Position numbers and translations under genes: made by a program. A stretch of DNA of 64,000 bases, taken from assembly GCA_038087875.1 (NCBI GenBank), contig CM075995.1, positions 5,334,001-5,398,000 of the forward strand, written 5' to 3'. Position 1 is the stretch's first letter, and every line of letters begins with the position of its first letter. The stretch is from Malacoraja senta (lineage: Eukaryota). This document shows positions 5,745-57,554 of the stretch, one piece after another. The notes beneath the pieces are model-generated. The model was not told where the DNA came from and made no database searches. It worked only from the letters and a program-made list of their open reading frames with translations.

Positions 5745-6825
5745 GCCTGCTCCCAGTGATGGAAGTGTGTAGGAATGAACTGCAGATGCTGGTTTAAACC
5801 GAAGATGGACCCAAAGACCTGGAGTCACTCAGCGGGACAGGCAGCATCTCTGGATAGAGTGAATGGGTGACGTTACGGGTCGAGACCCTTCTTCAGACAT
5901 GAAGTGTTGCTCTCAGACTTGCAAGTGATTGAAGAGTTCCTCGCAGGCTTGCAGTGACAAGTTTGTCATAGTGCGTTGATGATATAATTGATCCCAGCGC
6001 TTCACTAATGTGAATTCATTGTTGAGAGTATCTCCAGCCATGCAATGTGTCACGGGGGGGGGCATCAGATCATTTTGATTACTGGGCTCTATTCTTTACA
6101 CAATGCCAATGAAGTATTTGGCAGCCTACAATTTTCTTCAGTGACATCTGGAGAAACAATGAGCACAATCTTCACCGTGTGTTAAATCTGTGATACATGC
6201 AGAGTACATGACCTTTTCCTAATCTGAAGGTTTTGCATTAAACTGTGGGCGAAAGTGGTTACCAAGAACAGGTCCTCTTAAGAGGAGAGTGTGGCCGCGA
6301 AGTCGCTGCATTAGATTTCTGAGCCTTTTCTGCAGGTCAGCCATTTTGTACAATTTTTGGTTGTTCGGTTTGTCGCAGCAGCTAATAAACGTCTATCTAT
6401 CTCCGCCTTTAAAATATCCACTGACGGCCTCTATAGTCTTCCGTGGCAATGAATTTCACAGATTCACCATTCACTGACTAAAGACATTTTTCCTCATCTC
6501 CTTCCTAAAAGAACGTCCTTTAATTCTGAGACTATGGCCTCTAGTCCTAGGCTCTCCCACTAGTGGAAACATCCTTTTTGGTCAGCCATTTTGAACAATG
6601 TTGGACATTAGTTTTGTTGCAGCAGTTAATTCAATGCCTCATTTTTGCCTCCTGAAACTAGGTAACATGATTTTGTTGATGGACCAGGAAGGTTTATGAG
6701 GCAAGTGGCCATACTAGGCTGATACCACAATGCAACGCTGAGTATTGCCTCTCCATGTCTCCAGGGTCATCCTTCCCAGGCCAGGATCAATTCAATCTTT
6801 AACATCTACCTCAGATACCACCGCC
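5745..6825. repeat. Left arm of a ~1-kb diverged inverted duplication (partner 14535-15890)
   Basis: Colinear reverse-complement match, e.g. 5901 GAAGTGTTGCTCTCAGACTTGCAAG vs ~15823-15847 and 6700-6820 vs 14540-14678. Confidence 0.9.
5769..5900 (-). mobile_element. Penelope-like element 3' end (single arm)
   Basis: Related to the 3' end attached to the GIY-YIG ORF at 62092-63183; flanked by direct repeat GAAGTGT (5762-5768, 5901-5907). Confidence 0.75.
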
Positions 6826-8974: not shown

Positions 8975-11220
8975 CAGGGCTGCCAACTCTCACGCTTTGA
9001 GCGTGAGATCACGCCCTCAGGAAAACTCTCACGCCCCTCACGCTGATCACAAATGTCTCACGCTCTGTGGTGAGAAATTCTGTGATCAACGAAAATCTCA
9101 AAACTCGGATAAACTGCATTGTCCGCGGGTGTTGGAGAGCCGGGGCTGACGGAGGGATGAGAGCAGCGGGCGGATACAGATGCGAGGAGTCGGGGCTGGC
9201 GAGTGTTTGCGGGTCTGGCGAGTCGCTCGCTGCAGCTCCGGCCATGGAGCAGCCCCAGTGCGAGAGTCCCGGGCCGTCGGAGGCGTCGGAAGCGTTGCGC
9301 CGCTGCCGCGACAGTCTCTGTGCCGAGGGGACAGACTCTCAAAGGGAGGTGGAGAGTGAGAGAGGGAAGGAGACAGGAGACAGGGGGGAGAGAGGGGGTG
9401 AGAGGAGAGAGAGGGGACAGACAGAGGGAGGTGAATGGAGAGAGAGAGAAGAGGGAGAGAGGGGAGAGGAGAGAGAGAGAGGGGGAGAGGGGGGAAGAGT
9501 GAGGTGGGAGGGAGAGAGGGGAAGAGAGAGAGAGGGGGAGAGAGAGGGGAGGGAGAGGGAGATGGGGAGGGGGAGGGAGAGAGGGAGAGAGAAGGGAAGA
9601 GAGGAGAGAGGGAGAGAGGGGGAGAGAGAAGAGAGAGGGAAGATGGAGAGAGGAGAGGGGGAGACAGGGAGAGAGGGGGGTTAGAGGAGAAACAGAGGAG
9701 AGGGAGAGAGAGAGGGGAAAGAGAGGGGAGGGGACAGAGGGGAGAGAGAGAGGGGGTTGAGAAGAGAGAGAGCGGAAGAGAGGGGAGAAAGAGAGGGATG
9801 AGAGTGAGGTGGGAGGGAGAAAGGAGGGGAGAAAGAGAGAGGGGAGAGGGAGGAAGAGAGGTGGGAGAGAAAGAGGAAAGAGAGAGGAGAGGGGGAGAGA
9901 GAGAGGGGGTGAGAGAGAGGGAGAGGAGAGGGGGAGGAAGAGAGGAGGGGAGAGGGGGATAGAGAGGCAGGGCTGCCAACTCCCATGCAGAGTGTGGAGA
10001 ATCACGCATTTCGCCAAATTCTCCCGCTGACCACCACAATTTCTCTCGCTCTGTTGTGAGAAATTTTGTGATCAACGAAATTTCAATACTCATTCAACTG
10101 CATGGGCCATGGGTGTTGGAAGCAGAAGCAGCGACGGGGACAGATGCGGATGGGGAGCGGGGCTGGCGAGTGTTTACCGGGCTGGCGGGCAGTCACTGCA
10201 GCTCCGGCCATGGAGCAGCCTCAGTGCAAGGCGTCAGAAGCGTTGCGCCACTGCCGTGAGAGTCTCTGTGCCAAATTTGCCCAGGTGACCAGCATGGATC
10301 TGGCTGCGGCTCGGTGCATCCAGGAGGACAACCAGTGGCTGCTGGAAGTAAGTACCAAGCACTGGGTAGAAACGGTGGAAGATAGTGGACTTCAAATGGG
10401 GTGGTTGGAGAAAGCATCCTGCTAGATTTTCACTTACTGTAACTGCAGGAAAATGTTCCCGATGTTGGGGGAGTTCAGAACCAGGGGTCACAGTTTAAGA
10501 ATATAGGGGGGGGGGGGCAGTTAGGACTGAGATGAGGACATACTTTCTTCACACAGAGAGTTGTGAATCTGAGGAATTCTCTGCAACAGAAAGCAGTGCA
10601 GGCCAATTCACTGGATGTTTTCAAGAGAGAGTTACATTTAGTTCTTGGGGCTAACGACATCAAGGGATATGGGGAAAAAACAGGAAAGAGGTACAGATTT
10701 TAGATGAATAGCCATGATCATATTGAATGGCAGTGCTGGCTCGAAGGGCCGATGGCCTATTCCTGCACCTATTTTCTATGTTTCTATGCTTGAGTATATG
10801 GCAATAAAACTCGATCACTTCATTTTGAAGCATTCATGCATGGTGGAGGTATAATGTAGTCATAGAGTGATACAATGTGAAAACAGGCTCTTCGGCACAA
10901 CTTGCCCACACCCGCCAACATGTCCCAGCTACCCTACCTGCTGGGGGGAATTCCCTACCATACTGTGGAATGTAATTAGGAATGTAATTTACTCAACCTT
11001 ATTCATAGCTAATCCAATTTAAAGCATATATATTGCATTCAAGTGTAGGTTAAAAGACTCGCTACATTATGCACCATATTGCACAATTTCAAGCTGAAAA
11101 ATGCAAAAGATCCATACTAATGGGAGGGGAGACACCCCCCCCCCCCGGTCGTTATGCTCCCTCGGGCTTGGTCTCACGCAATTTCTCACTCCCAACTCTC
11201 ACCCAATGTTGGCAGCCCTG
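8975..11220. mobile_element. Non-autonomous DNA transposon (hAT-like termini) with 6-bp TSD
   Basis: Perfect 13-bp TIR CAGGGCTGCCAAC; TSD ATTCTC (8969-8974, 11221-11226); second left end at 9968; CR1 fragment at ~10420-10790 inside. Confidence 0.85.
9340..9967. repeat. Polypurine (GA-rich) low-complexity tract
   Basis: ~630 nt almost entirely G/A on the + strand. Confidence 0.97.
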
Positions 11221-19896: not shown

Positions 19897-21007
19897 GGGA
19901 GATTTCAATTTTCCACACATAGACTGGGAAACACATTCTGTAAATGGGCTGGATGGGTTGGAGTTTGTAAAATGTGTGCAGGAAAGTTTTTTTGCAGCAA
20001 TACATAGAAGTACCTACTAGAGAAGGGGCGGTGCTGGACCTCCTGTTAGGAAATGAGGTGGCAGAGGTATGCGTTGGGGAACAGTTCGGGACCAGTGATC
20101 ACAATACCATTAGTTTCAATATAATTATGGAGAGGGTCAGAACTGGACCTAGGGTTGAGATTTTTGATTGGAGAAAGGCTAACTTTGAGGAGATGCGAAA
20201 GGATTTAAAAGGAGTAAATTGGGACAGTTTGTTTTATGGGAAAGATGTGGAAGAGAAATGGAGGACATTTAAAGGTGAAATTTTAAGAGTACAGAATCTT
20301 TATGTCCCTGTTCGGTTGAAAGGAAATAGTAAAAATTGGAAAGAGCCATGGTTTTCAAGGGAAATTGGACACTTAGTTCGGAAAAAGAGAGAGATCTACA
20401 ATAATTATAGGCAGCATGGAGTAAATGAGGTGCTTGAGGAGTATAAAAAATGTAAAAAGTGTCTTAAGAAAGAAATTAGAAAAGCTAAAAGATATGAGGT
20501 TGCTTTGGCAAGTAAGGTGAAAGTAAATCCAAAGGGTTTCTACAGCTATATTAATAGCAAAAGGATAACGAGGGATAAAATTGGTCCATTAGAGAGTCAG
20601 AGTGGACAGCTATCTGCAGAGCCAAAAGAGATGGGGGAGATATTGAACAATTTCCTTTCTTCGGTATTCACCAAGGAGAAGGATATTGAATTATGTGAGG
20701 TAAGGGAAACAAGTAGAGTAGCTATGGAAACTTTGAGATTCAAAGAAGAGGAAGTACTGAAACTTTTGAGAAATATAAAAGTGGATAAGTCTCCAGGTCT
20801 GGACAGGATATTCCCTAGGACATTGAGGGAAGTTAGTGTAGAAATAGCAGGGGCTATGACAGAAATATTTCAAATGTCATTGGAAACGGCAATAGTGCCG
20901 GAGGATTGGCGTACTGCGCATGTTGTTCCATTGTTTAAAAAGTGGTCTAAGAGTAAACCTAGCAATTATACACCTGTTAGTTTGACGTCAGTGGTGGGCA
21001 AATTAAT
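19897..21007 (+). mobile_element. 5'-truncated CR1 (middle element B), 5' part
   Basis: Endonuclease end and linker (GDFNFP..., SDHN, KSPG.D) to ...SVVGKL; continues at 25466 (ILRDNIYKHL). Confidence 0.93.
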
Positions 21008-21200
21008 TGCTCCCAAATCTACAGAACTGCTGTAGATTTGGGAGCAACAGCAGCAGGAGATTAGCAAGAGATACGACTGATTGGCTCTAGCCCGAGTGGG
21101 AGGAGAGAAGTGAGTCAGAGGGGGGAAAAACAGTTGAAAAGTAGAAGCCAAGCACAGGCAGACTTTATTCTTAATAGGACCAGTTAATTACTTATATAAG

Positions 21201-22154
21201 ATGGGTGGCCAGGAGATGTGCCAATACTGTGAGATGTGGGAAATTGTTGACACCATTGATGTAGATGATCCCTACAGCTGCAGTAAGTGTTTGAAGCTAG
21301 CGGAACTCGAGCTCCGCATTGATGAGCTGGAGACCCAACTTCATACGCTGCGGTGCATCAGGGAGGGAGAGTATTACCTGGATGTTTTGTGCCAGGGGAT
21401 GGTCACACCGACCAGTTTAACTAATTCAGTAGTTAGTGAGCAGGGAAAGGAAGGTGTGGCCATAAGGGAGGCAGGTAGGGGGAACCAGGAGGAGATGCGG
21501 CAGGAGCCACAGCCCTTGTCCCTGACGAGCATGACCGAGGCTCTTACTCAATGTGAGGACGGGATCAGGGGCTGTGGGAGGGATGAGCAACCTGGCTGCA
21601 GCACCGTGGATCAGGGGGCCATTCAAGAGGGGGGAGTTAGAAGAAATGCCGTGGTGATAGGGGATAGTATTATTCGGGGGGTAGATAAGGTTCTCTGCGG
21701 CCAGCAGAACATGTCCCGAAGGCTGTGTTGCCTACCCGGTGCTAGGGTTAAGGATATCTCTGCGATGCTGGAGAGAAATTTGCAGAGTGAGGGGGAGGAT
21801 CCAGTGGTCGTGGTCCATGTGGGGACCAATGACATAGGAAGGACGAGGAAGGAGGATCTGCTGAACGAGTTTGAGCAGTTAGGGAATAAATTAAAAAGCA
21901 GAACCTCGAGGGTACTGATCTCCGGATTGCTACCTGAGCCACGGGCCAAATCGGCGAGGGTACGAAAAATTAAAAAGCTGAATGCGTGGCTCAAAGACTG
22001 GTGTGGGAAAAATGGGTTTGGTTTCTTGGGCCACTGGCACCAGTACTGGGACAGGGGGGATCTGTTCTGTAAGGACGGACTTCACCTGAACGGTGCTGGG
22101 ACTGGGGTCCTGGCAAATCATATAACTAGGGCAGTAGAGAGGTCTTTAAACTAA
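21201..22154 (+). CDS. CR1 ORF1p: zinc finger, coiled coil, SGNH/GDSL esterase domain (317 aa)
   Basis: CxxC...CxxC N-terminus, GDSII, LPGA, HVGTND, DGLHL motifs. Confidence 0.93.
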   Translation: MGGQEMCQYCEMWEIVDTIDVDDPYSCSKCLKLAELELRIDELETQLHTLRCIREGEYYLDVLCQGMVTPTSLTNSVVSEQGKEGVAIREAGRGNQEEMRQEPQPLSLTSMTEALTQCEDGIRGCGRDEQPGCSTVDQGAIQEGGVRRNAVVIGDSIIRGVDKVLCGQQNMSRRLCCLPGARVKDISAMLERNLQSEGEDPVVVVHVGTNDIGRTRKEDLLNEFEQLGNKLKSRTSRVLISGLLPEPRAKSARVRKIKKLNAWLKDWCGKNGFGFLGHWHQYWDRGDLFCKDGLHLNGAGTGVLANHITRAVERSLN

Positions 22155-25138
22155 GTAGCGGGGGGGAGGTATCAAGGGGGGTAATAACGGCAGGGGTAGA
22201 GGAAATAGAGCAGGGTATCAGTGGGGAAACGGAAAATCAAAATGTGACAGGAGGATCCAGAATGTGTGAAGATAAAGCTCTAGATGTAAAAGGGGCAAAA
22301 ACAGAAAGGAAGGGTAGTAAAAATCATCTGAAAGTGCTGTATCTAAATGCACGGAGTATTCGAAATAAGATAAATGAATTAACGGTGCAATTAAGTACAT
22401 ATAGTTATGATATCGTGGCCATTACGGAGACATGGCTGCAAGGGGATCAGGATTGGGAGTTAAATATAGAGGGGTACTCGACAATTAGAAAAGATAGACA
22501 GGAAAGAAAGGGAGGAGGGGTGGCCCTTTTAATAAGGGAGGGAATAACGGCAATAGCGAGGAAGGATATTGCGTTGAAGGATCAGGATAGTGAAACAGCT
22601 TGGGTACAGATAGAGAATAACAAGGGGAAAAAAACACTAGTGGGTGTAATTTATAGACCTCCAAATAGCTGTGACGCTGTTAGTCAGAACATAAATCTGC
22701 AAATAGTTGACGCATGTAAAAAGGGAACTGCTGTAATCATGGGGGACTTCAATTTTCATATTAATTGGGCAAACCAAACTGGGCAGGGTAGACTAGAGGA
22801 AGAGTTTATAGAATGTATTAGAGACGGGTTCCTAGAACAGTATGTCACAGAACCGACAAGGAGGGAGGCAATCTTGGATCTGGTCCTGTGTAATGAAGCA
22901 GGATTAATTAAAAATGTCATAGTTAGGGACTCGTTGGGAACAAGTGACCACAATATGGTCGAATTCCATATTCAAATAGAAGGAGAGCAGGTTGAAACTC
23001 AGGCTAGGGTACTTAGTCTAAATAAAGGGGATTATGAAGGTATGAGGACTGAGCTGATCAAAGTTGACTGGGATAGCAGACTCAAGAATAAGACGGTACA
23101 TGAGCAGTGGTGTACGTTTAAGGATCTACTGTATAACCTTCAAGAAAAATTTATTCCTATGAAGAAAAAAAGAGGTAAGGGAAAGAACAGTCAGCCATGG
23201 CTCAGTAAAACTATAAAGGATAGTATTCGGCTGAAGGCAAGGGCATATAAGGTAGCTAGAGATAGTGGGAGGGTAGAGGATTGGGAAGCATTTAAAGGTC
23301 AGCAAAAAATAACTAAGAGATTAATTAAGACAGGGAAAATAGACTATGAAAGGAATTTAGCGAACAACATAAAAACTAATAGTAAGAGTTTTTATAGTTA
23401 TATAAAAAGAAAAAGGGTGGCTAAGGTGAACGTTGGTCCATTGGAGGGTGAGACTGGAGAGTTGTTGGTGGGGAACATGGAAATGGCAAAGGCATTAAAC
23501 GAGTATTTTGTATCAGTCTTCACCATAGAAGACACAAAAAATATTCCAACGCTGGATAAACAGGGGGCGGTAGGAATGGAGGAGCTAAATACTATTAAGA
23601 TCACCAAGGAGGTGGTATTAGGGAAATTAATGAGACTGAAGGAGGATAAATCCCCTGGGCCTGATGGATTACATCCAAGGGTCTTGAGGGAGATAGCGGT
23701 GGGGATTGTGGATGCATTGGTGATAATTTTCCAAAACTCCCTGGAGGCAGGAACGGTCCCAGTGGATTGGAAAATGGCCAATGTAACACCTATATTTAAA
23801 AAAGGAAGTAAACAGAAGGCGGGTAACTATAGACCGGTTAGTCTAACATCGGTGGTGGGTAAAATGTTAGAGACAATTATTAAAGAAACACTAACGGGGC
23901 ACTTGGATAAACATGACTTCATCGGACAGAACCAGCATGGTTTTGTGAAGGGGAAGTCCTGTTTAACGAATCTGCTCGAATTCTTTGAGGAAGTAACAAC
24001 CCGGGTGGATAAAGGGGAACCGGTGGATGTGGTATACTTGGACTTCCAAAAGGCTTTTGACAAGGTGCCACATAAGAGACTATTGCTAAAAATAAAAAAT
24101 TATGGGATTGGGGGTAATATATTAGCATGGGTAGAGGATTGGCTAACAAATAGGAAGCAGAGAGTGGGGATAAATGGTTCATACTCGGGATGGCAACCGG
24201 TAACTAGCGGGGTTCCGCAAGGGTCGGTGCTGGGACCCCAGTTGTTCACAATTTATATAAATGATTTGGAGGAGGGAACCAAGTGTAATGTATCAAAATT
24301 TGCGGACGATACAAAAATGGGAGGAAAAGTAGGGGATGAGGAGGATAGGAAGAGTCTGCAAAAGGATATAGATAAGCTAGGTGAGTGGGCAACAACTTGG
24401 CAGATGAAATTTAATACTAATAAATGTGAAGTCATTCACTTTGGGAAAAAAAATGATAGGGCAAGTTATTTTCTAAATGAGGTGGAGCTGCGTTGTAATG
24501 CAACGCAAAGGGATCTAGGGGTAGTAGTACATGAATCACTAAAAGTTAGTATGCAGGTGCAGCAAGCAATCAGGAAGGCCAATGGAGTTTTGGCCTTTAT
24601 TGCTAGGGGGATTGAGTATAAAAACACGGAGGTCTTGCTGCAGCTGTACACAGTATTAGTGAGACCACATTTGGAATACTGTGTACAGTTCTGGGGTCCA
24701 TACTTAAGAAAGGATGTACTGGCCCTGGAGGCAGTGCAGCGAAGGTTTACAAGATTAATTCCTGCAATGAGGGGATTGACATATGAGGAAAGGTTAAGTA
24801 GGCTGGAACTCTACTCTTTGGAGTTTAGAAGAATGAGAGGCGATCTCATTGAAACATATAAGATCGTGAGGGGCCTTGATCGGGTGGATGCACCGAGGAT
24901 GTTCCCAATGATCGGGGAAACTAGAACTAGGGGACATAGTTGTAGAATAAGAGGGGGCTCTTTTAAAACTGAGATGAGGAAGAACTTCTTCACCCAGAGG
25001 GTGGTTAATTTATGGAATTCACTGCCCCAGGGAGCAGTGGAAGCAGAAACATTAAATATATTTAAGTCTAAAATAGATGGTTTTTTAGCTGCCAAGGGGA
25101 TAAGGGGCTACGGGGAGAGGGCAGGGATATGGACCTAG
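22145..25138 (+). CDS. CR1 ORF2: APE endonuclease plus reverse transcriptase (frame open from the slippery site; first ATG at 22262)
   Basis: YLNARS, ITETWL, YRPP, GDFN, SDHN endonuclease motifs; YRPVSLTS, QGSVLGP, FADD RT motifs; no internal stops. Confidence 0.95.
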   Translation, partial: FKLSSGGEVSRGVITAGVEEIEQGISGETENQNVTGGSRMCEDKALDVKGAKTERKGSKNHLKVLYLNARSIRNKINELTVQLSTYSYDIVAITETWLQGDQDWELNIEGYSTIRKDRQERKGGGVALLIREGITAIARKDIALKDQDSETAWVQIENNKGKKTLVGVIYRPPNSCDAVSQNINLQIVDACKKGTAVIMGDFNFHINWANQTGQGRLEEEFIECIRDGFLEQYVTEPTRREAILDLVLCNEAGLIKNVIVRDSLGTSDHNMVEFHIQIEGEQVETQARVLSLNKGDYEGMRTELIKVDWDSRLKNKTVHEQWCTFKDLLYNLQEKFIPMKKKRGKGKNSQPWLSKTIKDSIRLKARAYKVARDSGRVEDWEAFKGQQKITKRLIKTGKIDYERNLANNIKTNSKSFYSYIKRKRVAKVNVGPLEGETGELLVGNMEMAKALNEYFVSVFTIEDTKNIPTLDKQGAVGMEELNTIKITKEVVLGKLMRLKEDKSPGPDGLHPRVLREIAVGIVDALVIIFQNSLEAGTVPVDWKMANVTPIFKKGSKQKAGNYRPVSLTSVVGKMLETIIKETLTGHLDKHDFIGQNQHGFVKGKSCLTNLLEFFEEVTTRVDKGEPVDVVYLDFQKAFDKVPHKRLLLKIKNYGIGGNILAWVEDWLTNRKQRVGINGSYSGWQPVTSGVPQGSVLGPQLFTIYINDLEEGTKCNVSKFADDTKMGGKVGDEEDRKSLQKDIDKLGEWATTWQMKFNTNKCEVIHFGKKNDRASYFLNEVELRCNATQRDLGVVVHESLKVSMQVQQAIRKANGVLAFIARGIEYKNTEVLLQLYTVLVRPHLEYCVQFWGPYLRKDVLALEAVQRRFTRLIPAMRGLTYEERLSRLELYSLEFRRMRGDLIETYKIVRGLDRVDAPRMFPMIGETRTRGHSCRIRGGSFKTEMRKNFFTQRVVNLWNSLPQGAVEAETLNIFKSKIDGFLAAKGIRGYGERAGIWT

Positions 25139-25465
25139 GTATGGTTAGTATAGTAAGACCTGAGTGATCTCCTGGACAAGTGTCGATCGCCTGGATTGGG
25201 GTCGGAGAGGAATTTCCCGGATTTTTTTCCCGAATTGGACCTGGGTTTTTATCCGGTTTTTTGCCTCCCCCAGGAGATCACGCGGTTCTTGGGGTGGAGA
25301 GGGGTGATAGCGATATAAAGGGGAGGGTAGTGTCTTGTGTTCTGTGTCTTGTGTCTACTGTTTGTGGGTAAGGGTGTCTGTTTAGTGTTCAGCCCTGAGC
25401 GAATGGCGGTGCGGGCTCGATGGGCCTGGTGGTCTACTCTCGCACCTACTTTCTATGTTTCTATG

Positions 25466-26820
25466 ATACTTAGAGATAATATATATAAGCATCTGGATAA
25501 ACAGGGGCTGATTAGGAACAGTCAACATGGATTTGTGCCTGGAAGGTCATGTTTGACTAATCTTCTTGAATTTTTTGAAGAGGTTACTCGGGAAATTGAT
25601 GAGGGTAAAGCCATGGATGTTGTATATATGGACTTCATTAAGGCCTTTGACAAGGTTCCTCACGGAAGGTTGGTTAAGAAGGTTCAATGGTTGGGTATTA
25701 ATGGTGGAGTAGCAAGATGGATTCAACAGTGGGTGAATGGGAGATGCCAGAGAGTAATGGTGGATGGTTGTTTGTCAGGTTGGAGGCCAGTGACTAGTGG
25801 GGTTCCACAGCGATCTGTGTGGGGTCCACTGTTGTTTGTCATGTACATCAATGATCTGGATGATGGTGTGGTAAATTGGATTAGTAAGTATGCAGATGAT
25901 ACTAAGATAGCTGGGGCTGTGGATAATGAAGTAGATTTTCAAAGTCTACAGAGAGATTTATGCCGGTTGGAAGAGTGGGCTGGAAGATGGCAGATGGAGT
26001 TTAATGCTGATAAGTGTGAGGTGCTACATCTTGGCAGGACAAATCAAAATAGGACGTACATGGTAAATGGTAGGGAATTGAAGAATGCAGGTGAACAGAG
26101 GGATCTTGGAATAACTGTGCACAGTTCCCTGAAAGTGGAATCTCATGTAGATAGGGTGGTAAAGAAAGCTTTTGGTGTGCTGGCTTTTATAAATCAGAGC
26201 ATTGAGTATAGAAGTTGGGATGTAATGTTAAAATTGTACAAGGCATAGGTGAGGCCAATTCTGGAGTATGGTGTACAATTTTGGTCGCCTAATTATAGGA
26301 AGGATGTCAACAAAATAGAGAGAGTACAGAGGAGATTTACTAGAATGTTGCCTGGGTTTCAGCAACTAAGTTACAGAGAAAGGTTGAACAAGTTAGGGCA
26401 TTATTCTTTGGAGCGCAGAAGGTTAAGGGGGGACTTGATAGAGGTCTTTAAAATAATGAGAGGGATAGACAGAGTTGCCGTGGATAAGCTTTTCCCACTG
26501 AGAGTAGGGAAGATTCAAACAAGGGGACATGACTTGAGAATTAAGGGACAGACGTTTAGGGGTAACATGAGGGGGAACTTCTTTACTCAGAGAGTGGTGG
26601 CTGTGTGGAATGAGCTTCCAGTGAAGGTGGTGGAGGCAGGTTCGTTTTTATCATTTAAAAATAAATTGGATAGTTATATGGACGGGAAAGGAATGGAGGG
26701 TTATGGTCTGAGCGCAGGTATATGGAACTAGGGGAGAATACGTGTTCGGCACGGACTAGAAGGGTCGAGATGGCCTGTTTCCGTGCTGTAATTGTTATAT
26801 GGTTATATGGTTATATGGTT
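25466..26820 (+). mobile_element. CR1 element B, 3' part (premature stop at ~26246)
   Basis: RT (YADD) and C-terminus; (TTATATGG)n tail. Confidence 0.93.
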
Positions 26821-34452: not shown

Positions 34453-34484
34453 TTTAAAGTAAAATTGGTGGATATTCTGACAAC

Positions 34485-39136: not shown

Positions 39137-42100
39137 TCAGTATCCCGTACCTGCCTTCTCTCCATACCCCCTGATCCCTTTAGCCACAAGGGCCACATCT
39201 AATTCCCTCTTAAATATAGCCAATGAACTGGCCTCAACTACCCTCTGTGGCAGAGAGTTCCAGAGATTCACCACTCTCTGTGTGAAAAAGTTTTTCCTCA
39301 TCTCGGTCTTAAAGGATTTTCCCCTTATCCTTAAGCTGTGACCCCTTGTCCTGGACTTCCCCAACATCGGGAACAATCTTCCTGCATCTAGCCTGTCCAA
39401 CCCCATAAGAATCTTGTACGTTTCTATAAGATCCCCTCTCAATCTCCTAAATTCTAGCGAGTATAAGCCAAGTCTATCCAGTCTTTCTTCATATGAAAGT
39501 CCTGACATCCCAGGAATCAGTCTGGTGAACCTTCTCTGCACTCCCTCTATGGCTATAATGTCCTTCCTCAGATTTGGAGACCAAAACTGTACGCAATACT
39601 CCAGGTGTGGTCTCACCAAGACCCTGTACAACTGCAGTAGAACCTCACTGCTCCTATACTCAAATCCTCTTGCTATGAAGGCCAACATACCATTCGCTTT
39701 CTTCACTGCCTGCTGCACCTGCATGCCTACTTTCAATGACTGGTGTACCATGACACCCAGGTCTCGCTGCATCTCCCCATTTCCTAATCGGCCACCATTT
39801 AGATAATAGTCTGCCTTCCCGTTTTTGCTACCAAAGTGGATAACCTCACATTTATCCACATTATACTGCATCTGCCAAACATTTGCCCACTCACCCAGCC
39901 TATCCAAGTCACCTTGCAGTCTCCTAGCATCCTCCTCACAGCTAACACTGCCCCCCAGCTTAGTGTCATCCGCAAACTTGGAGATGTTGCTTTCAATTCC
40001 TTCGTCCAGATCATTAATATAAATTGTAAATAGCTGGGGTCCCAGCACTGAGCCTTGTGGTACCCCACTAGTCACTGCCTGCCATTGTGAAAAGGACCCG
40101 TTTACTCCTACTCTTTGCTTCCTGTTTGCCAGCCAGTTCTCTATCCACATCAATACTGAATCCCCAATACCGTGTGATTTAAGTTTGTATCCTAATCTCT
40201 TATGTGGTACCTTGTCGAAAGCCTTCTGAAAGTCCAGATACAACACATCCACTGGTTCTCCCCTATCCACTCTACTAGTTACATCCTCGAAAAATTCTAT
40301 AAGATTCGTCAGACACGATTTACCTTTCGTAAATCCATGCTGACTTTGTCCAATGATTTCACCACTTTCCAAATGTGCTGCTATCCCATCTTTAATAACT
40401 GACTCTAGCAGTTTCCCCACTACCGATGTTAGACTAACTGGTCTGTAATTCCCCGTTTTCTCTCTCCCTCCCTTCTTAAAAAGTGGGGTTACGTTTGCTA
40501 CCCTCCAATCCTCAGGAACTACTCCAGAATCTAAAGAGTTTTGAAAAATTATCACTAATGCATCCACTATTTCTGGAGCTACTTCCTTAAGTACTCTGGG
40601 ATGCAGCCTATCTGGCCCTGGTGATTTATCGGCCTTTAATCCATTCAATTTACCCAACACCACTTCCCGACTAACCTGGATTTCACTCAGTTCCTCCATC
40701 TCCTTTGACCCGCGGCCCCCTGCTATTTCCGGCAGATTATTTATGTCTTCCTTAGTGAAGACGGAACCAAAGTAGTTATTCAATTGGTCTGCCATATCCT
40801 TGTTCCCCATGATCAATTCACCTGTTTCTGACTGCAAGGGACCTACATTTGATTTAACTAATCTCTTTCTCTTCACATATCTATAAAAACCTTTGCAGTC
40901 AGTTTTTATGTTCCCTGCCAGTTTCCTTTCATAATCTATTTTCCCTTTCCTAATTAAGCCCTTTGTCCTCCTCTGCTGGTCTCTGAATTTCTCCCAGTCC
41001 TCTGGTATGCTGCTTTTTCTGGCTAATTTGTACGCATCATCTTTTGCTTTGATACTATCCCTGATTTCCCTTGTTATCCACGGATGCACTACCTTCCTTG
41101 ATTTATTCTTTTGCCAAACTGGGATGAACAATTTTTGTAGTTCATCCATGCAGTCTTTAAATGCCTTCCATTGCATATCCACCGTCAACCCTTTTAGAAC
41201 TAATTGCCAGTCAATCTTGGCCAATTCACGTCTCATACCCTCAAAGTTACCTTTCTTTAAGTTCAGAACCGTTGTTTCTGAATTAACAATGTCACTCTCC
41301 ATCCTAATGAAGAACTCAACCATATTATGATCACTCTTGCCCAAGGGGGCACGCACAACAAGTCTGCTAACTAACCCTTCCTCATTACTCAATACCCAGT
41401 CTAGAATAGCCTGCTCTCTCGTTGGTTCCTCTACATGTTGGTTTAGATAACTATACCTCATACATTCCAAGAAATCCTCTTCCTCAGCACCCCTGCCAAT
41501 TTGATTCACCCAATCTATATGTAGATTGAAGTCACCCATTATAACTGTTTTGCCTTTGTTGCACGCATTTCTAATTTCCTGTTTGATGCCATCCCCAACT
41601 TCACTACTACTGCTAGGTGGCCTGTACACAACGCCCACCAGCGTTTTCTGCCCCTTAGTGTTTCGCAGCTCTACCCATACCGATTCCACATCCTCCAAGC
41701 TAATGTCCTTCCTTTCCACTGCGTTAATCTCCTCTCTAACCAGCAACGCCACCCCACCTCCTTTTCCTTTCTCTCTATCCCTCCTGAATATTGAATATCC
41801 CTGGATGTTCAGCTCCCAGCCTTGGTCACCTTGGAGCCATGTCTCCGTGATCCCAACTATATCATAATCATTAATTGCTATCTGCACGTTCAACTCATCC
41901 ACCTTATTACGAATGCTCCTTGCATTGAGACACAAAGCCTTCAGACTTGTTTTTACAACGCTCTTACCCCTTATACAATTATGTTGAAAAGTGGCTCTTT
42001 TTGATTTTTGCCCTGGATTTGTCTGCCTGCCACTTTTACCTTTCACCTTGCTACCTATTGCTTCCGCCCGCATTTTACACCCCTCTGTTTCTCTGCTCAC

Positions 42101-42262
42101 CCATTTAAGAACCCCACCACCTCTTATTCTCTGTTTATTATTGTTTTCTTCTTTCCCCCCTACATGTTGGGTCTGAGTGCTTTCCTTCTCTGCCTCCTGC
42201 CTCACACACTGTCTAATAGCATTCTCTATTTGAGTCCCTCCCCCCAACCATTCTAGTTTAAA
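39137..42262 (-). CDS. CR1 ORF2: APE endonuclease plus RT (frame open from the slippery site; first ATG after it at 42073)
   Basis: CLNARS, ITETWL, GDFN, SDHN, YRPVSLTS, QGSVLGP, FADD; no stops. Confidence 0.95.
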   Translation of the reverse strand, partial: FKLEWLGGGTQIENAIRQCVRQEAEKESTQTQHVGGKEENNNKQRIRGGGVLKWVSRETEGCKMRAEAIGSKVKGKSGRQTNPGQKSKRATFQHNCIRGKSVVKTSLKALCLNARSIRNKVDELNVQIAINDYDIVGITETWLQGDQGWELNIQGYSIFRRDREKGKGGGVALLVREEINAVERKDISLEDVESVWVELRNTKGQKTLVGVVYRPPSSSSEVGDGIKQEIRNACNKGKTVIMGDFNLHIDWVNQIGRGAEEEDFLECMRYSYLNQHVEEPTREQAILDWVLSNEEGLVSRLVVRAPLGKSDHNMVEFFIRMESDIVNSETTVLNLKKGNFEGMRRELAKIDWQLVLKGLTVDMQWKAFKDCMDELQKLFIPVWQKNKSRKVVHPWITREIRDSIKAKDDAYKLARKSSIPEDWEKFRDQQRRTKGLIRKGKIDYERKLAGNIKTDCKGFYRYVKRKRLVKSNVGPLQSETGELIMGNKDMADQLNNYFGSVFTKEDINNLPEIAGGRGSKEMEELSEIQVSREVVLGKLNGLKADKSPGPDRLHPRVLKEVAPEIVDALVIIFQNSLDSGVVPEDWRVANVTPLFKKGGREKTGNYRPVSLTSVVGKLLESVIKDGIAAHLESGEIIGQSQHGFTKGKSCLTNLIEFFEDVTSRVDRGEPVDVLYLDFQKAFDKVPHKRLGYKLKSHGIGDSVLMWIENWLANRKQRVGVNGSFSQWQAVTSGVPQGSVLGPQLFTIYINDLDEGIESNISKFADDTKLGGSVSCEEDARRLQGDLDRLGEWANVWQMQYNVDKCEVIHFGSKNGKADYYLNGGRLGNGEMQRDLGVMVHQSLKVGMQVQQAVKKANGMLAFIARGFEYRSSEVLLQLYRVLVRPHLEYCVQFWSPNLRKDIIAIEGVQRRFTRLIPGMSGLSYEERLDRLGLYSLEFRRLRGDLIETYKILMGLDRLDAGRLFPMLGKSRTRGHSLRIRGKSFKTEMRKNFFTQRVVNLWNSLPQRVVEASSLAIFKRELDVALVAKGIRGYGEKAGTGY

Positions 42263-43188
42263 GTCTCCCCAGTAGCCTTTGCAGATCTCCCCGCCAGGAT
42301 ATCGGTCCCCCTCAGGTTCAAGTGCAACCCATCCTTTTTGTACAGGTCGAACCTTCCACAAAAGAAGTCCCAATGATCCAGAAATTTGAATCCCTGCCTT
42401 CTGCACCAGTCCTTCAGCCACGCATTAATCCTCCACCTCGCTCCATTCCTACTCTCACTGTCGCGTGGTACAGGCAGTAATCCCGAGATTGTTACCTTTG
42501 CTGTCCTTCTCTTTAACTCCCCTCCTAACTCCCTAAATTCTCCTTTCAGGACCTCTTCTCTTTTTTTACCTATGTCATTGGTACCTATATGTATCACGAC
42601 CTCGGGCTCCTCTCCCTGCCCTTTCAGGATGTCTTGGACACGTTGGGACACATCACAGACCCTGGCACCAGGGAGGCAAACTACCATCCGGGTCTCCCGA
42701 CTGCGTCCACAGAATCGCCTGTCTGACCCCCTAACTATAGAGTCCCCTATTAATATTGCCCTCCTCTTCTTTTCCTTACGCTTCTGAGCAACAGGACCGG
42801 TCTCTATACCGGAGGCCCGGCTGCTGTCGCTACCCCCAGGTAGGCTGTCCACCCCAACAGTGCTCAAACAGGAGTACTTATTGTCAAGGTGTACAGCCAC
42901 CAGGGTACTCTCTAGTCCCTGCCTGTGCCCCTTGCCTCTCCCAACCGTGATCCACTTGCCTGCCTCCTGTGGTGTTGGAGTGACCACATCCCTGTAACTC
43001 CTCTCAATGACTTCCTCGCTCTCCCTGACTAGACGGAGGTCATCGAGCTGCTGCTCCAGGTTCCTAATACGGTCCATTAGGAGCCCCATCTCGATACACC
43101 TGGCGCAGATGTGGACGTCTGGAGGGCTAACAGACTCCATGACTTCCCACATCTGACATCCAGAACAGTAAACTGCCCTGGCCGTCAT
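42253..43188 (-). CDS. CR1 ORF1p: zinc finger, coiled coil, SGNH esterase (311 aa from MTARAVYC)
   Basis: CSGC...CARC, GDSIV, LPGA, HIGTND, DGLHL. Confidence 0.93.
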   Translation of the reverse strand: MTARAVYCSGCQMWEVMESVSPPDVHICARCIEMGLLMDRIRNLEQQLDDLRLVRESEEVIERSYRDVVTPTPQEAGKWITVGRGKGHRQGLESTLVAVHLDNKYSCLSTVGVDSLPGGSDSSRASGIETGPVAQKRKEKKRRAILIGDSIVRGSDRRFCGRSRETRMVVCLPGARVCDVSQRVQDILKGQGEEPEVVIHIGTNDIGKKREEVLKGEFRELGGELKRRTAKVTISGLLPVPRDSESRNGARWRINAWLKDWCRRQGFKFLDHWDFFCGRFDLYKKDGLHLNLRGTDILAGRSAKATGETLN

Positions 43189-55462: not shown

Positions 55463-56530
55463 ATTCAGATTCAGATTCAGATTCAGAAAACTTTATTGTC
55501 TGTCGTAACAGAAAATCTTCTTTGGCGTGGCTCAACATACAAACAGGACAATGTACTGATAAGCTGTCATACAACACAGATTTCTGCGAGCACACACCGT
55601 GTGTATAGATCTTAAAAGCAAGTATAAGGATTAAAAACTGTAAAAATAGACAAGATGAAAGTTGTGGATTATTGTAAAGTGACAGTGCGTCAGGGTTAAT
55701 TTGTCCATTGTTCATTTTTTATTTAAGCTGTTTATGGCAATGGGTATGAATGAGTTTTTGTGGATGTTTTTCTTAGATAGGGGGACTTTATATCGGCGGC
55801 CTGATGGCAGAAGTTGGAAGGACTTGTGCAGGGGGTGGGTGGGATCCTGTGTAATGAGGTTGGCTTTCCTTTTAACTGCCTGGGTGTGAAGTACTGATAA
55901 TTGATTTTGAGTTTTGCCAGTTATTTTGCTTGCTTGATTGATGATCCGGGAAAGCTTTGATTTGTCTTTGACAGAGGTGAGGGTGAACCAGGATGTGATG
56001 TTAAAGGTGAGTACAGATTCTATAAGTGATTTATAGACAGCTGTTAAAATGTCCTGTCTGACATCAAATCTCCTGAGTTTTCTCAGCAGGAACAGGCGTT
56101 GCTGTGCCTTCTTGTACACAGAGTCTGTGTGCTGGGAGTAGGACAGGCGGGTGTCAATCTCTGTGCCCAGGTATCTAAAGGCCTCTACCTGCTCAACTGT
56201 CTGCCCATTCAGCCTCAGAGGTTCAAAGAGAGGTTGGGGGGAAGATGTCCGCCTCCCCCCACAACATAGCTCCTTGGTCTTGGAGATGTTAAGCTCCAGA
56301 GAGCTCTCTTTGATCCACAGCATCAGGGTGTTGACCTGCTGATAGTAGGCAGCCAGAGAAGTGTGATCCTTGATGTGGGCCACCAGGGCCATATCGTCTG
56401 CATACTTAAAAAGGGAAATGTCACTGTTATTGTTTGTTATGTTGTTTGTGTAGATGGAAAATAAAATCGGTGATAAAACACAACCCTGGGGGACACCAGT
56501 GTTTAAAATCATGTTCTTGGATTTAAAACA
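55463..56530 (-). mobile_element. Rex/Babar-like LINE, 5'-truncated, with an open RT C-terminal frame (55712-56551)
   Basis: NTGVPQGCVLSP, KYADD, FRYLG, AQQRLFLLRKL, DPTHPLH; (TCTGAA)n tail. Confidence 0.88.
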
Positions 56531-57554
56531 ATAGTGGCATTTAAGCCACATGATTATGTAGGTAATGAGGGGTACGGATCATGTACTCCGATACTTTCCT
56601 CCTGATGATAGAAGTGCAATGAGAGTGTGCCTAGGGTGCTGCTGGTCTTTGTTGATATTGGTTGCCTTTTTGAGGCAGCACCTCCAATGGATCCCAGCAA
56701 TGGCGGGAAGTCAGCATACGTGATGGTCTGGGCAGTGTCCACCACTCTCTGTAATCTCCTTAGTTCCTGGACGTTCGAATAGAGGGATATAGATCACGTG
56801 TCGTCAGATGCGATTAGTTTGTCTTGGAATTAAGTTAGGTACAGACATTGTGGGCTGATGGGCCTGAACCTATGCTGTACTCTTCTAAGTTCTATGTTCT
56901 ATGAAATAATAAACGGATATTTTGGCCTTGGCATTTATTTTTGTTCCTGAATGGCTCATTCCCATCTAGACTTTATAATTGATGTGTGTGAAAAGATTTA
57001 TGTTCCCTTGCAACATCATTTCATTGTTCCTTTTACTCTATAATTATTATTTTTGTTTTAATTCTTAGAATGTTTTGTACTCTCTTATTCATGGCTCTCT
57101 CTCTCTCTGTTGTCTTTATATTCCAAATCTGTCAATAACGTCATTATAAAAAAAAAATTCTGCTTGTTCTCCAATATCTTCTACAATCTTCTACAACTTT
57201 CATCGAACCCAGTTTCCAACCATCAGGCAACATTTTACGGTGATTGAAATCTGACTACCAATACAAAATTTGACCTGAGTTGGTGATTATTTTGTTTTAT
57301 TAAAAATATACAATATGCCCATGGTAAGACTGCGAGCTGATATTTGCTTACAATGCAGATCAATTTAATGGATCTCAGACACAACTGTCTGCATTTGGCC
57401 CATATCCCTCTAAACCTTTTCGTATCCATGTACCCATCCAAATGTTGTTATAGTACCTGCCTCAACTACCTCCTTTGGCAGCTCGTTCGAAAGACTCACC
57501 ACCCACTGTGTGAAAACACTGCCTCTTGTGTTCCTGTTCAATCTTTCCCCTCTG

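Follow-up and report, generated by a model that had tools for sequence, protein, structure and literature searches.

How is the second open reading frame (ORF2) of a CR1 element translated when it lies in the -1 frame relative to ORF1? The question is raised by element C, a full-length young CR1 long interspersed nuclear element (LINE) at ∼21020-25465 of a 64,000 nucleotide (nt) stretch of Malacoraja senta DNA (GenBank assembly GCA_038087875.1, contig CM075995.1, positions 5,334,001 to 5,398,000 of the forward strand), the whole of which we refer to as the window and number from its first letter. An earlier note, made from these letters alone, had proposed that a programmed -1 ribosomal frameshift joins the two ORFs. 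The translation of LINE ORF2 has been called an open, important question (PMC3894237), and in most vertebrates it is the CR1 group that dominates among retrotransposons (PMC13343379). Comparative tests of the proposal, in which both fixed codons and an open -1 frame were found, support it, and canonical CR1 LINEs with an esterase-containing ORF1 very probably express ORF2 by programmed -1 ribosomal frameshifting.

Junction of ORF1 and ORF2

ORF1 of element C (317 aa; ATG 21201-21203, 21201-22154, + strand) ends Ser-Leu-Asn-stop and is written there TCT TTA AAC TAA. Its last codons contain the slippery heptamer T_TTA_AAC, of the form X_XXY_YYZ, at 22145-22151 in the phase required for slippage (TC T-TTA-AAC), and the ORF1 stop TAA (22152-22154) follows directly, just as the earlier note had described. 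The ORF2 frame (22130-25138, +; 1002 aa stop to stop) has no stop within it, and its upstream limit is a TAG whose last base is 22129, again as claimed; it provides an uninterrupted -1-frame linker (22151-22342, +) between the slip site and the N-terminal strand of the endonuclease. A G-tract, which is a candidate stimulator, lies 8 nt past the heptamer at 22160-22169 (+). Within 22242-22264 (+) an out-of-frame ATG-TGA at 22242 precedes the first in-frame ATG at 22262, which as a start codon would give a 958-aa ORF2p. Pfam places an SGNH esterase (PF13472) in the C-terminal part of ORF1, an endonuclease (PF03372, PF14529) at ∼22346-22951 (+) and a reverse transcriptase (RT; PF00078) at ∼23804-24451 (+), and the predicted -1 fusion, with junction ...ERSLN-LSSGG, computes to 1312 aa, the size that had been estimated.

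In the mechanism that we favor most ribosomes would terminate at the ORF1 stop and release a 35-kDa ORF1p, while a minority, with tRNA-Leu and tRNA-Asn on U_UUA_AAC, would slip back by one base, read through the linker and produce an ORF1p-endonuclease-RT fusion (∼148 kDa in element C). Much ORF1p and little fusion would amount to a ratio control like that of gag and gag-pol. A pause due to the adjacent stop and/or a factor bound to the G-tract, and not a pseudoknot, would probably promote the slip.

Conservation of the Heptamer and of the Open Frame

In order to gauge conservation at the DNA level the 1.94-Gb genome was searched with a pattern comprising any codons for DGLHLN, 18 free codons, any codons for Leu-Asn and TRR. 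There were 8090 matches, with the exact T TTA AAC in 7802 of them, as compared with none in either case for the reversed control pattern; the 116 ends with some other base at the first heptamer position are scattered over the same subfamilies. Because copies share ancestry and are not independent, the informative unit is the subfamily, and 100 junctions were therefore sorted by ORF1 tail into 14 groups with a divergence of up to 58%. Every one of the 14 has TTA AAC as its last two sense codons, while across these groups the two Leu codons of DGLHLN are written in 5 and 4 ways, and distant groups use different synonymous codons for about half of the amino acids that they share. The codon preceding TTA AAC encodes Ser, Thr, Val, Gly or Ala, with T at the wobble position in 12 of 14 groups; the two exceptions were seeded from a search that selected non-T copies, and other listed copies of both families carry T. 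The stop that follows varies among TAA, TAG and TGA. When the last six bases were left free, 56 of 78 matches retained the exact heptamer, 15 showed scattered changes and 7 were unrelated or rearranged (hand count), the same search giving 5 control matches. Ten stretches from old subfamilies all have the heptamer and are too decayed for a frame test. The heptamer is kept at synonymous positions, as a frameshift site would be, and the expectation that the codons are fixed as NNT TTA AAC held across divergent subfamilies and, as discussed below, jawed vertebrates.

The linker tells the same story. Of the 100 junctions, 56 have an open path from heptamer to endonuclease, in every case in the -1 frame and never in the 0 or +1 frame, with lengths of 44, 56, 65, 66-68, 83 or 110-111 codons; the other 44 are broken or lack an endonuclease motif. 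Seven linker types have a stretch without -1-frame stops that reaches their first in-frame Met or their endonuclease motif, and the 0 and +1 frames hold 0-6 stops each. Shuffling gives probabilities of 0.01-0.62 per type for such a stretch; the types are partly related, and the product, 1e-8, overstates their independence because linkers have been swapped by recombination. Subfamilies have exchanged ORF1 and ORF2 modules within the linker, at a stretch encoding GFLKC that they have in common, and chimeric families have arisen in this way (L032, L046-L048 versus L031, L033, L053).

The junction of element C is itself carried by 527 copies (family C), and at least 150 copies are identical (100%) to its last 117 ORF1 residues. 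Young copies had been expected to keep the -1 frame open, and among the first 100 family-C copies taken along the genome 92 do so, with no more than 8 out of frame. Among 30 loci that were fetched, 13 are out of frame by G-run length, and G6 copies are present in both haplogroups of the family; we had considered this as a sign that the frame is free, a notion outweighed by the count of 8 in the first 100, and interpret the variation as repeated slippage or errors of assembly. A net 3-nt deletion upstream of ATG 22262, which leaves the frame intact, is present in contigs of two related organisms, and those of another have 11 listed substitutions upstream of this ATG without a stop (codons read by hand), evidence that is weak on its own.

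A subfamily with 1647 genome matches bears on where ORF2 translation can start. Its first 100 matches include 76 of the exact in-frame length, 2 off by a multiple of 3 and 22 out of frame (hand count), and none of the nine copies read has an in-frame ATG in the linker. In copy L068 the first Met is codon 266 of a frame that is open for the 500 codons examined, and the endonuclease motifs NAR (57), ETW (84), GDFN (189) and SDH (257) all precede it. Judging from these sequences, initiation at an AUG cannot account for the endonuclease of this subfamily. A restart at a non-AUG codon, as documented for viral termination-reinitiation (PMC5972666), may be used here; such restarts are also described for LINE-1.

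The same ORF1 end is found in other vertebrates. Leu-Asn terminates ORF1 proteins named from Pelodiscus, Chrysemys, Lepidochelys, Zootoca and Varanus, and in the first 400 nt of each consensus sequence in supplementary Table 2 of PMC13343379 (counts without a denominator) there are 23 occurrences of the heptamer with a stop, of which 18 mark the end of an esterase ORF1 as judged by eye. These 18 come from alligator (2), crocodile (3), bearded dragon and bullfrog, from coelacanth, bowfin and a halosaur element labelled Crack, and from chimaera, catshark (2), dogfish (3), sawfish and stingray; two of the remaining five are in dogfish 5' untranslated regions (UTRs) and three in L2 or Rex1 rows. 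Six one-base variants of the heptamer occur 10 times in the same sequences, never in a CR1 row. The part examined includes no bird DNA, and the consensus sequences are too gappy for a general frame test; in ScyCan_CR1-1a, read by eye, the -1 frame is open into the endonuclease. In a stingray gene model from NCBI (P0001) the esterase continues into the endonuclease across this junction. Scans of viral contigs and a first scan of genome contigs for vertebrate relatives gave no match; a second genome-contig scan gave 12 loci, and none of the four that were read is a vertebrate CR1 junction. The two dogfish 5' UTR occurrences, in the consensus sequences SquAca_CR1-3 and SquAca_CR1-18, are of TTTAAACTA(A/G) with G-rich sequence after it.

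Sequence Downstream of the Heptamer

The note had placed G-runs 8 nt past the heptamer, a position that proves to be conserved across subfamilies, and had taken the linker beyond the heptamer to be unconserved, which does not hold wholly: a G-tract ∼8-20 nt past the heptamer is present in nearly all groups, the number of groups (of 14) with G being 8-13 across positions 9-15 and 17-19 and 1-5 across positions 21-29. Most of the published vertebrate ends have it too, mostly 8-10 nt on. The tract encodes Gly in the -1 frame and may have a role in the peptide. In element C its G4Hunter-type score of 2.2 is the highest of that element, and scores range over 0.56-2.56 across 17 representatives; RNAfold with quadruplexes allowed folded none in element C, and in a related organism the second and third G-runs are broken. 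These results do not support a G-quadruplex as a general stimulator, and the idea is weak. A stem-loop fared no better, since a G-run/C-run hairpin is formed only in single copies (L047 and element 2, the second full-length CR1 of the window), and a scan of two full elements for a long-range pairing partner found none in common.

Several observations weigh against frameshifting. Efficient -1 frameshifting usually involves a downstream RNA structure. The usual, though not universal, stimulatory structure 5-9 nt away was not found by folding without explicit pseudoknots, the downstream region has no Rfam match, a consensus fold of 20 sequences was empty, and z-scores for downstream folds range from -3.7 to +1.2. 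In-frame linker ATGs do exist in element C and several subfamilies, and the rows listed for related organisms include none in which the ATG of element C is altered; a TAATG stop-start, with its ATG in the ORF2 frame, is present in 3 of the 18 published ends (shark rows). Codon fixation is not confined to the heptamer, an upstream Asn being AAC in 13 of 14 groups and a Gly GGG in 12 of 14, and the fixation of AAC is by itself weak evidence. The heptamer and its phase, their conservation, the open -1 linker and the AUG-less subfamily are observed in the sequences; the slip itself, its rate, its stimulator and any later cleavage of the fusion are inferred. Among more distant ORF1 tails, considered below, 46 of 102 have some other ending, and the heptamers assigned there to Gly-Asn and Lys-Asn ends are deduced from protein.

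Alternative Explanations

The most serious competitor is termination followed by reinitiation as in LINE-1 or SART1, in which ribosomes would restart at an AUG in the linker or, if the linker lacks one, at a non-AUG codon near the stop and no fusion would be made; the heptamer, stop and G-tract would serve to position or hold the post-termination ribosome. Such a mechanism has been described for both of these elements (PMC5972666, PMC3894237) and viral reinitiation tolerates non-AUG restarts (PMC5972666). In-frame ATGs are available in the linkers of elements C, 2 and others, the three shark TAATG ends would suit it, and 12 of 14 groups have, ∼52 nt upstream of the stop, a GGGA (TGGGA for the clade of element C) that resembles motif 1 of the calicivirus termination upstream ribosomal binding site (TURBS); the motif is, however, missing by eye from two crocodilian consensus ends. 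An open -1 linker does not discriminate, as it is likewise needed for a restart close to the ORF1 stop. What reinitiation leaves unexplained is an invariant X_XXY_YYZ in slip phase beside a stop that varies, as well as the Gly-Asn and Lys-Asn ends of distant relatives. Nor is there a start codon shared near the ORF1 stop: in the 14 group representatives no ATG overlaps it in the ORF2 frame, and in elements C and 2 out-of-frame ATGs come before the first in-frame one. We consider reinitiation in place of frameshifting unlikely, and note that it may operate alongside frameshifting in subfamilies with a linker ATG.

That there is no translational signal at all, Leu-Asn being kept for the C-terminus of the protein and the DNA motif on other grounds (as a site for RNA binding, splicing or template switching, by descent or through A-rich codon bias), is highly improbable: Leu-Asn could be a protein feature, recombination within the linker would keep the frame through homology and the 5' UTR occurrences of TTTAAACTA(A/G) in two dogfish consensus sequences fit such a view, but the need for a protein end leaves synonymous bases free, the match to the solved ORF1 esterase 4C1B stops five residues before Leu-Asn, an L2-like clade does without the dipeptide, four contig sets guessed to be RNA list no GT-AG joint across the junction (a weak test), and in the AUG-less subfamily the endonuclease is retained intact and must therefore be translated in some way.

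Distant Relatives

We examined 163 homologues of ORF1, of which 105 have the tail motif, giving 102 distinct tails: 44 end in Leu-Asn, 10 in Gly-Asn and 2 in Lys-Asn. These dipeptides are the products of U_UUA_AAC, G_GGA_AAC and A_AAA_AAC, which are three of four heptamers named among the most shift-prone (PMC5009743). The preceding residue suits the wobble base that each heptamer needs. Residues that lack a T-ending codon (E/Q/K/M/W) stand before Leu-Asn in 1 of 44 tails, as compared with 16 and 15 tails for the two positions that come next, a contrast blunted by position -6, which is also at 1 of 44 and so counts against the test. Gln precedes 8 of the 10 Gly-Asn ends (Fisher p 4e-7, relatedness ignored). 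The Gly-Asn proteins are P0077, P0078, P0089, P0094, P0097, P0102, P0106, P0114, P0140 and P0158, and those ending in Lys-Asn are P0146 and P0149; ten further proteins (P0061-P0063, P0066, P0073, P0075, P0086, P0112, P0121, P0129) have, by eye, an internal Lys-Asn that is similarly placed and has a short tail after it. In a tree of the esterase core (99 proteins, three that were too short being omitted; names were sought for 20 proteins) the clade holding the vertebrate CR1 proteins is almost entirely Leu-Asn, a second clade mixes Leu-Asn, Gly-Asn and Lys-Asn, and the L2-like clade has none of the three.

A metagenome scan yielded 80 distant loci. Among 50 metagenome loci with a readable ORF1 end the stop is TGA-C in 34 (TGA CCA in 15, TGA CTA in 14), and in 17 ORF2 is open in frame past a single stop; many of these loci are close kin. 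Esterase-ORF1 LINEs of this single-stop type, with mostly TGA-CTA or TGA-CCA, are L093-L095, L099, L101, L102, L104, L105, L107, L142 and L155 from metagenome contigs, and also L091, L123 and L131. There is no Met before the endonuclease in L091, L105 and L107. TGA-CTA and TGA-CCA are a known context for readthrough, and a related lineage of esterase-ORF1 LINEs apparently offers a candidate for programmed stop-codon readthrough.

A wider picture can be drawn, of an animal-wide recoding in the CR1 group toward gag-pol-like fusions. Jawed-vertebrate CR1s would have kept U_UUA_AAC since sharks and amniotes split, a protein bound to the G-tract, in place of an RNA structure, would drive the slip in a G-rich mirror of the system used by the virus of the porcine reproductive and respiratory syndrome (PRRSV), and related lineages would switch among U_UUA_AAC, G_GGA_AAC, A_AAA_AAC and in-frame readthrough of UGA-C. 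We regard this picture as tentative and rather doubtful.

Element C and Other Features of the Window

The reading frame of ORF1 in element C spans 21138-22154. The N-terminal part of the protein has CxxC/CxxC and a coiled-coil-like region (judged by eye), and the protein matches PDB 4C1B, labelled an ORF1-encoded protein, with an E value of 2.5e-28. The 5' UTR (21020-21200, +) has an approximate 5' edge, taken from the longest of 30 genomic copies, which begin at 21020-21026 (blastn). The 3' UTR (25139-25465, +) has a CR1-type short-repeat tail at 25451-25465, and 25401-25465 matches four other places in the window. By its ORF1, its ORF2 and this 3' end of short tandem repeats without long terminal repeats (LTRs) element C is, on sequence grounds, a canonical CR1; the placement was made from ORF1 and from likeness to labelled consensus sequences rather than from an RT tree. 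Its ORF1 clusters with turtle and lizard ORF1 proteins (support 0.93) and has a tail closely like that of the dogfish consensus SquAca_CR1-17a; the closest named homologues are from rays. Fragments of a CR1 RT region that is older flank it at 20800-21047 and 25466-26248, there is a 41-nt inverted match at its 5' edge (21007-21047), and no clear target-site duplication was found in the flanks.

The claim that the arrangement recurs in two other CR1s, at 42256 and 27742, holds insofar as the same heptamer and a stop close ORF1 in each. In the divergent element 2 ORF1 occupies 42253-43188 (-), with the heptamer at 42262-42256 and TAG as the stop, and the ORF2 frame 39137-42424 (-; 1095 aa stop to stop); the linker measures 111 codons and its first in-frame ATG, at 42073, follows four out-of-frame ones. 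The short overlap of the two ORFs that had been described is a property of element C only, the -1 frame of element 2 being open from 42424, 54 codons upstream. The third copy (heptamer 27748-27742, -, followed by TAA) shares the heptamer and stop and has no in-frame ATG in the linker before the endonuclease motif, but it is decayed, with a -1-frame stop at codon 66 and a cut ORF1. A fourth TTTAAAC-stop, at 34458 (-), has no esterase tail before it and was treated as chance. TTTAAAC is also present in a palindromic GGTTTAAACC context within a short element repeated at 5793, 30563 and 51495, which is probably a short interspersed nuclear element (SINE) unrelated to the ORF1 junction. The open frame at 55712-56578 (-), with matches to part of an RT and to PF09004 (ALKBH8_N), is probably the ORF2 end of another LINE family. 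Long open frames (354, 337 and 331 aa) lie at 19971-21035 (+) and 9058-10093 (-), and the two of them that were scanned have no Pfam match.

Comparison with Known Systems

Our literature searches, with classic CR1 sequence papers and Repbase notes outside their reach, returned no report of frameshifting in CR1. The classic papers are said to present the ORFs as overlapping or only a short way apart, and may contain a passing reference to frameshifting; an earlier suggestion in print is quite conceivable, if somewhat improbable. The accessible parts of PMC5009743, PMC4255032, PMC13343379, PMC3894237, PMC4120745 and PMC3905857 contain none. The canonical vertebrate CR1s of PMC13343379 have the same esterase ORF1 and endonuclease-RT ORF2, and in the accessible portion its main text makes no mention of frameshift, overlap, start codon, readthrough, translation or slippery; what we take to be the junction signal is present, undescribed, in its sequences.

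If frameshifting is indeed used, CR1 would solve the problem of ORF2 translation in the manner of a retrovirus, ORF2 annotations that begin at a linker Met would be wrong, and the active enzyme would carry the multimerization and esterase domains of ORF1. Retrotransposition assays of full-length CR1 would require an intact junction, and this would be a very old and abundant chromosomal -1 frameshift that apparently operates without a structured stimulator.

Among viral systems the closest counterpart is U_UUA_AAC of the coronavirus infectious bronchitis virus (IBV), with the same heptamer in the same phase, and retroviral gag-pol likewise joins a structural ORF to an RT ORF in the -1 frame (PMC5009743). 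In its working the CR1 junction would resemble gag-pol or coronavirus 1a/1b frameshifting, minus the structured stimulator that is usual there. CR1 differs from these in being a non-LTR element in which no pseudoknot or stem-loop was found and for which the slip is predicted from sequence. In PRRSV, nsp1beta and PCBP stimulate frameshifting through a C-rich protein-binding motif 11 nt past the shift site (PMC5009743). The CR1 junction resembles it in having a short motif ∼10 nt downstream in place of RNA structure, an analogy only, as the CR1 motif is G-rich and known here from its sequence; the CR1 slip may be stimulated by a protein or by a pause at the adjacent stop. Non-LTR elements with recoding have precedents, -1 frameshifting being stated for ORF2 of TRE5-A and TRE3-A of Dictyostelium (PMC5911963), which are amoebozoan and of another lineage, and +1 frameshifting, reinitiation or readthrough having been suggested for elements of Paramecium (PMC5405496). 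LINE-1 and SART1 face the same problem, a low level of ORF2 product from a bicistronic LINE RNA, and use termination-reinitiation (PMC5972666). The TAATG of the three shark rows is also a stop-start of the SART1 type. Yet ORF2p of LINE-1 and SART1 is a protein of its own, started after a spacer or at a UAAUG overlap, whereas ORF2 of CR1 is tied to ORF1 by frame and heptamer.

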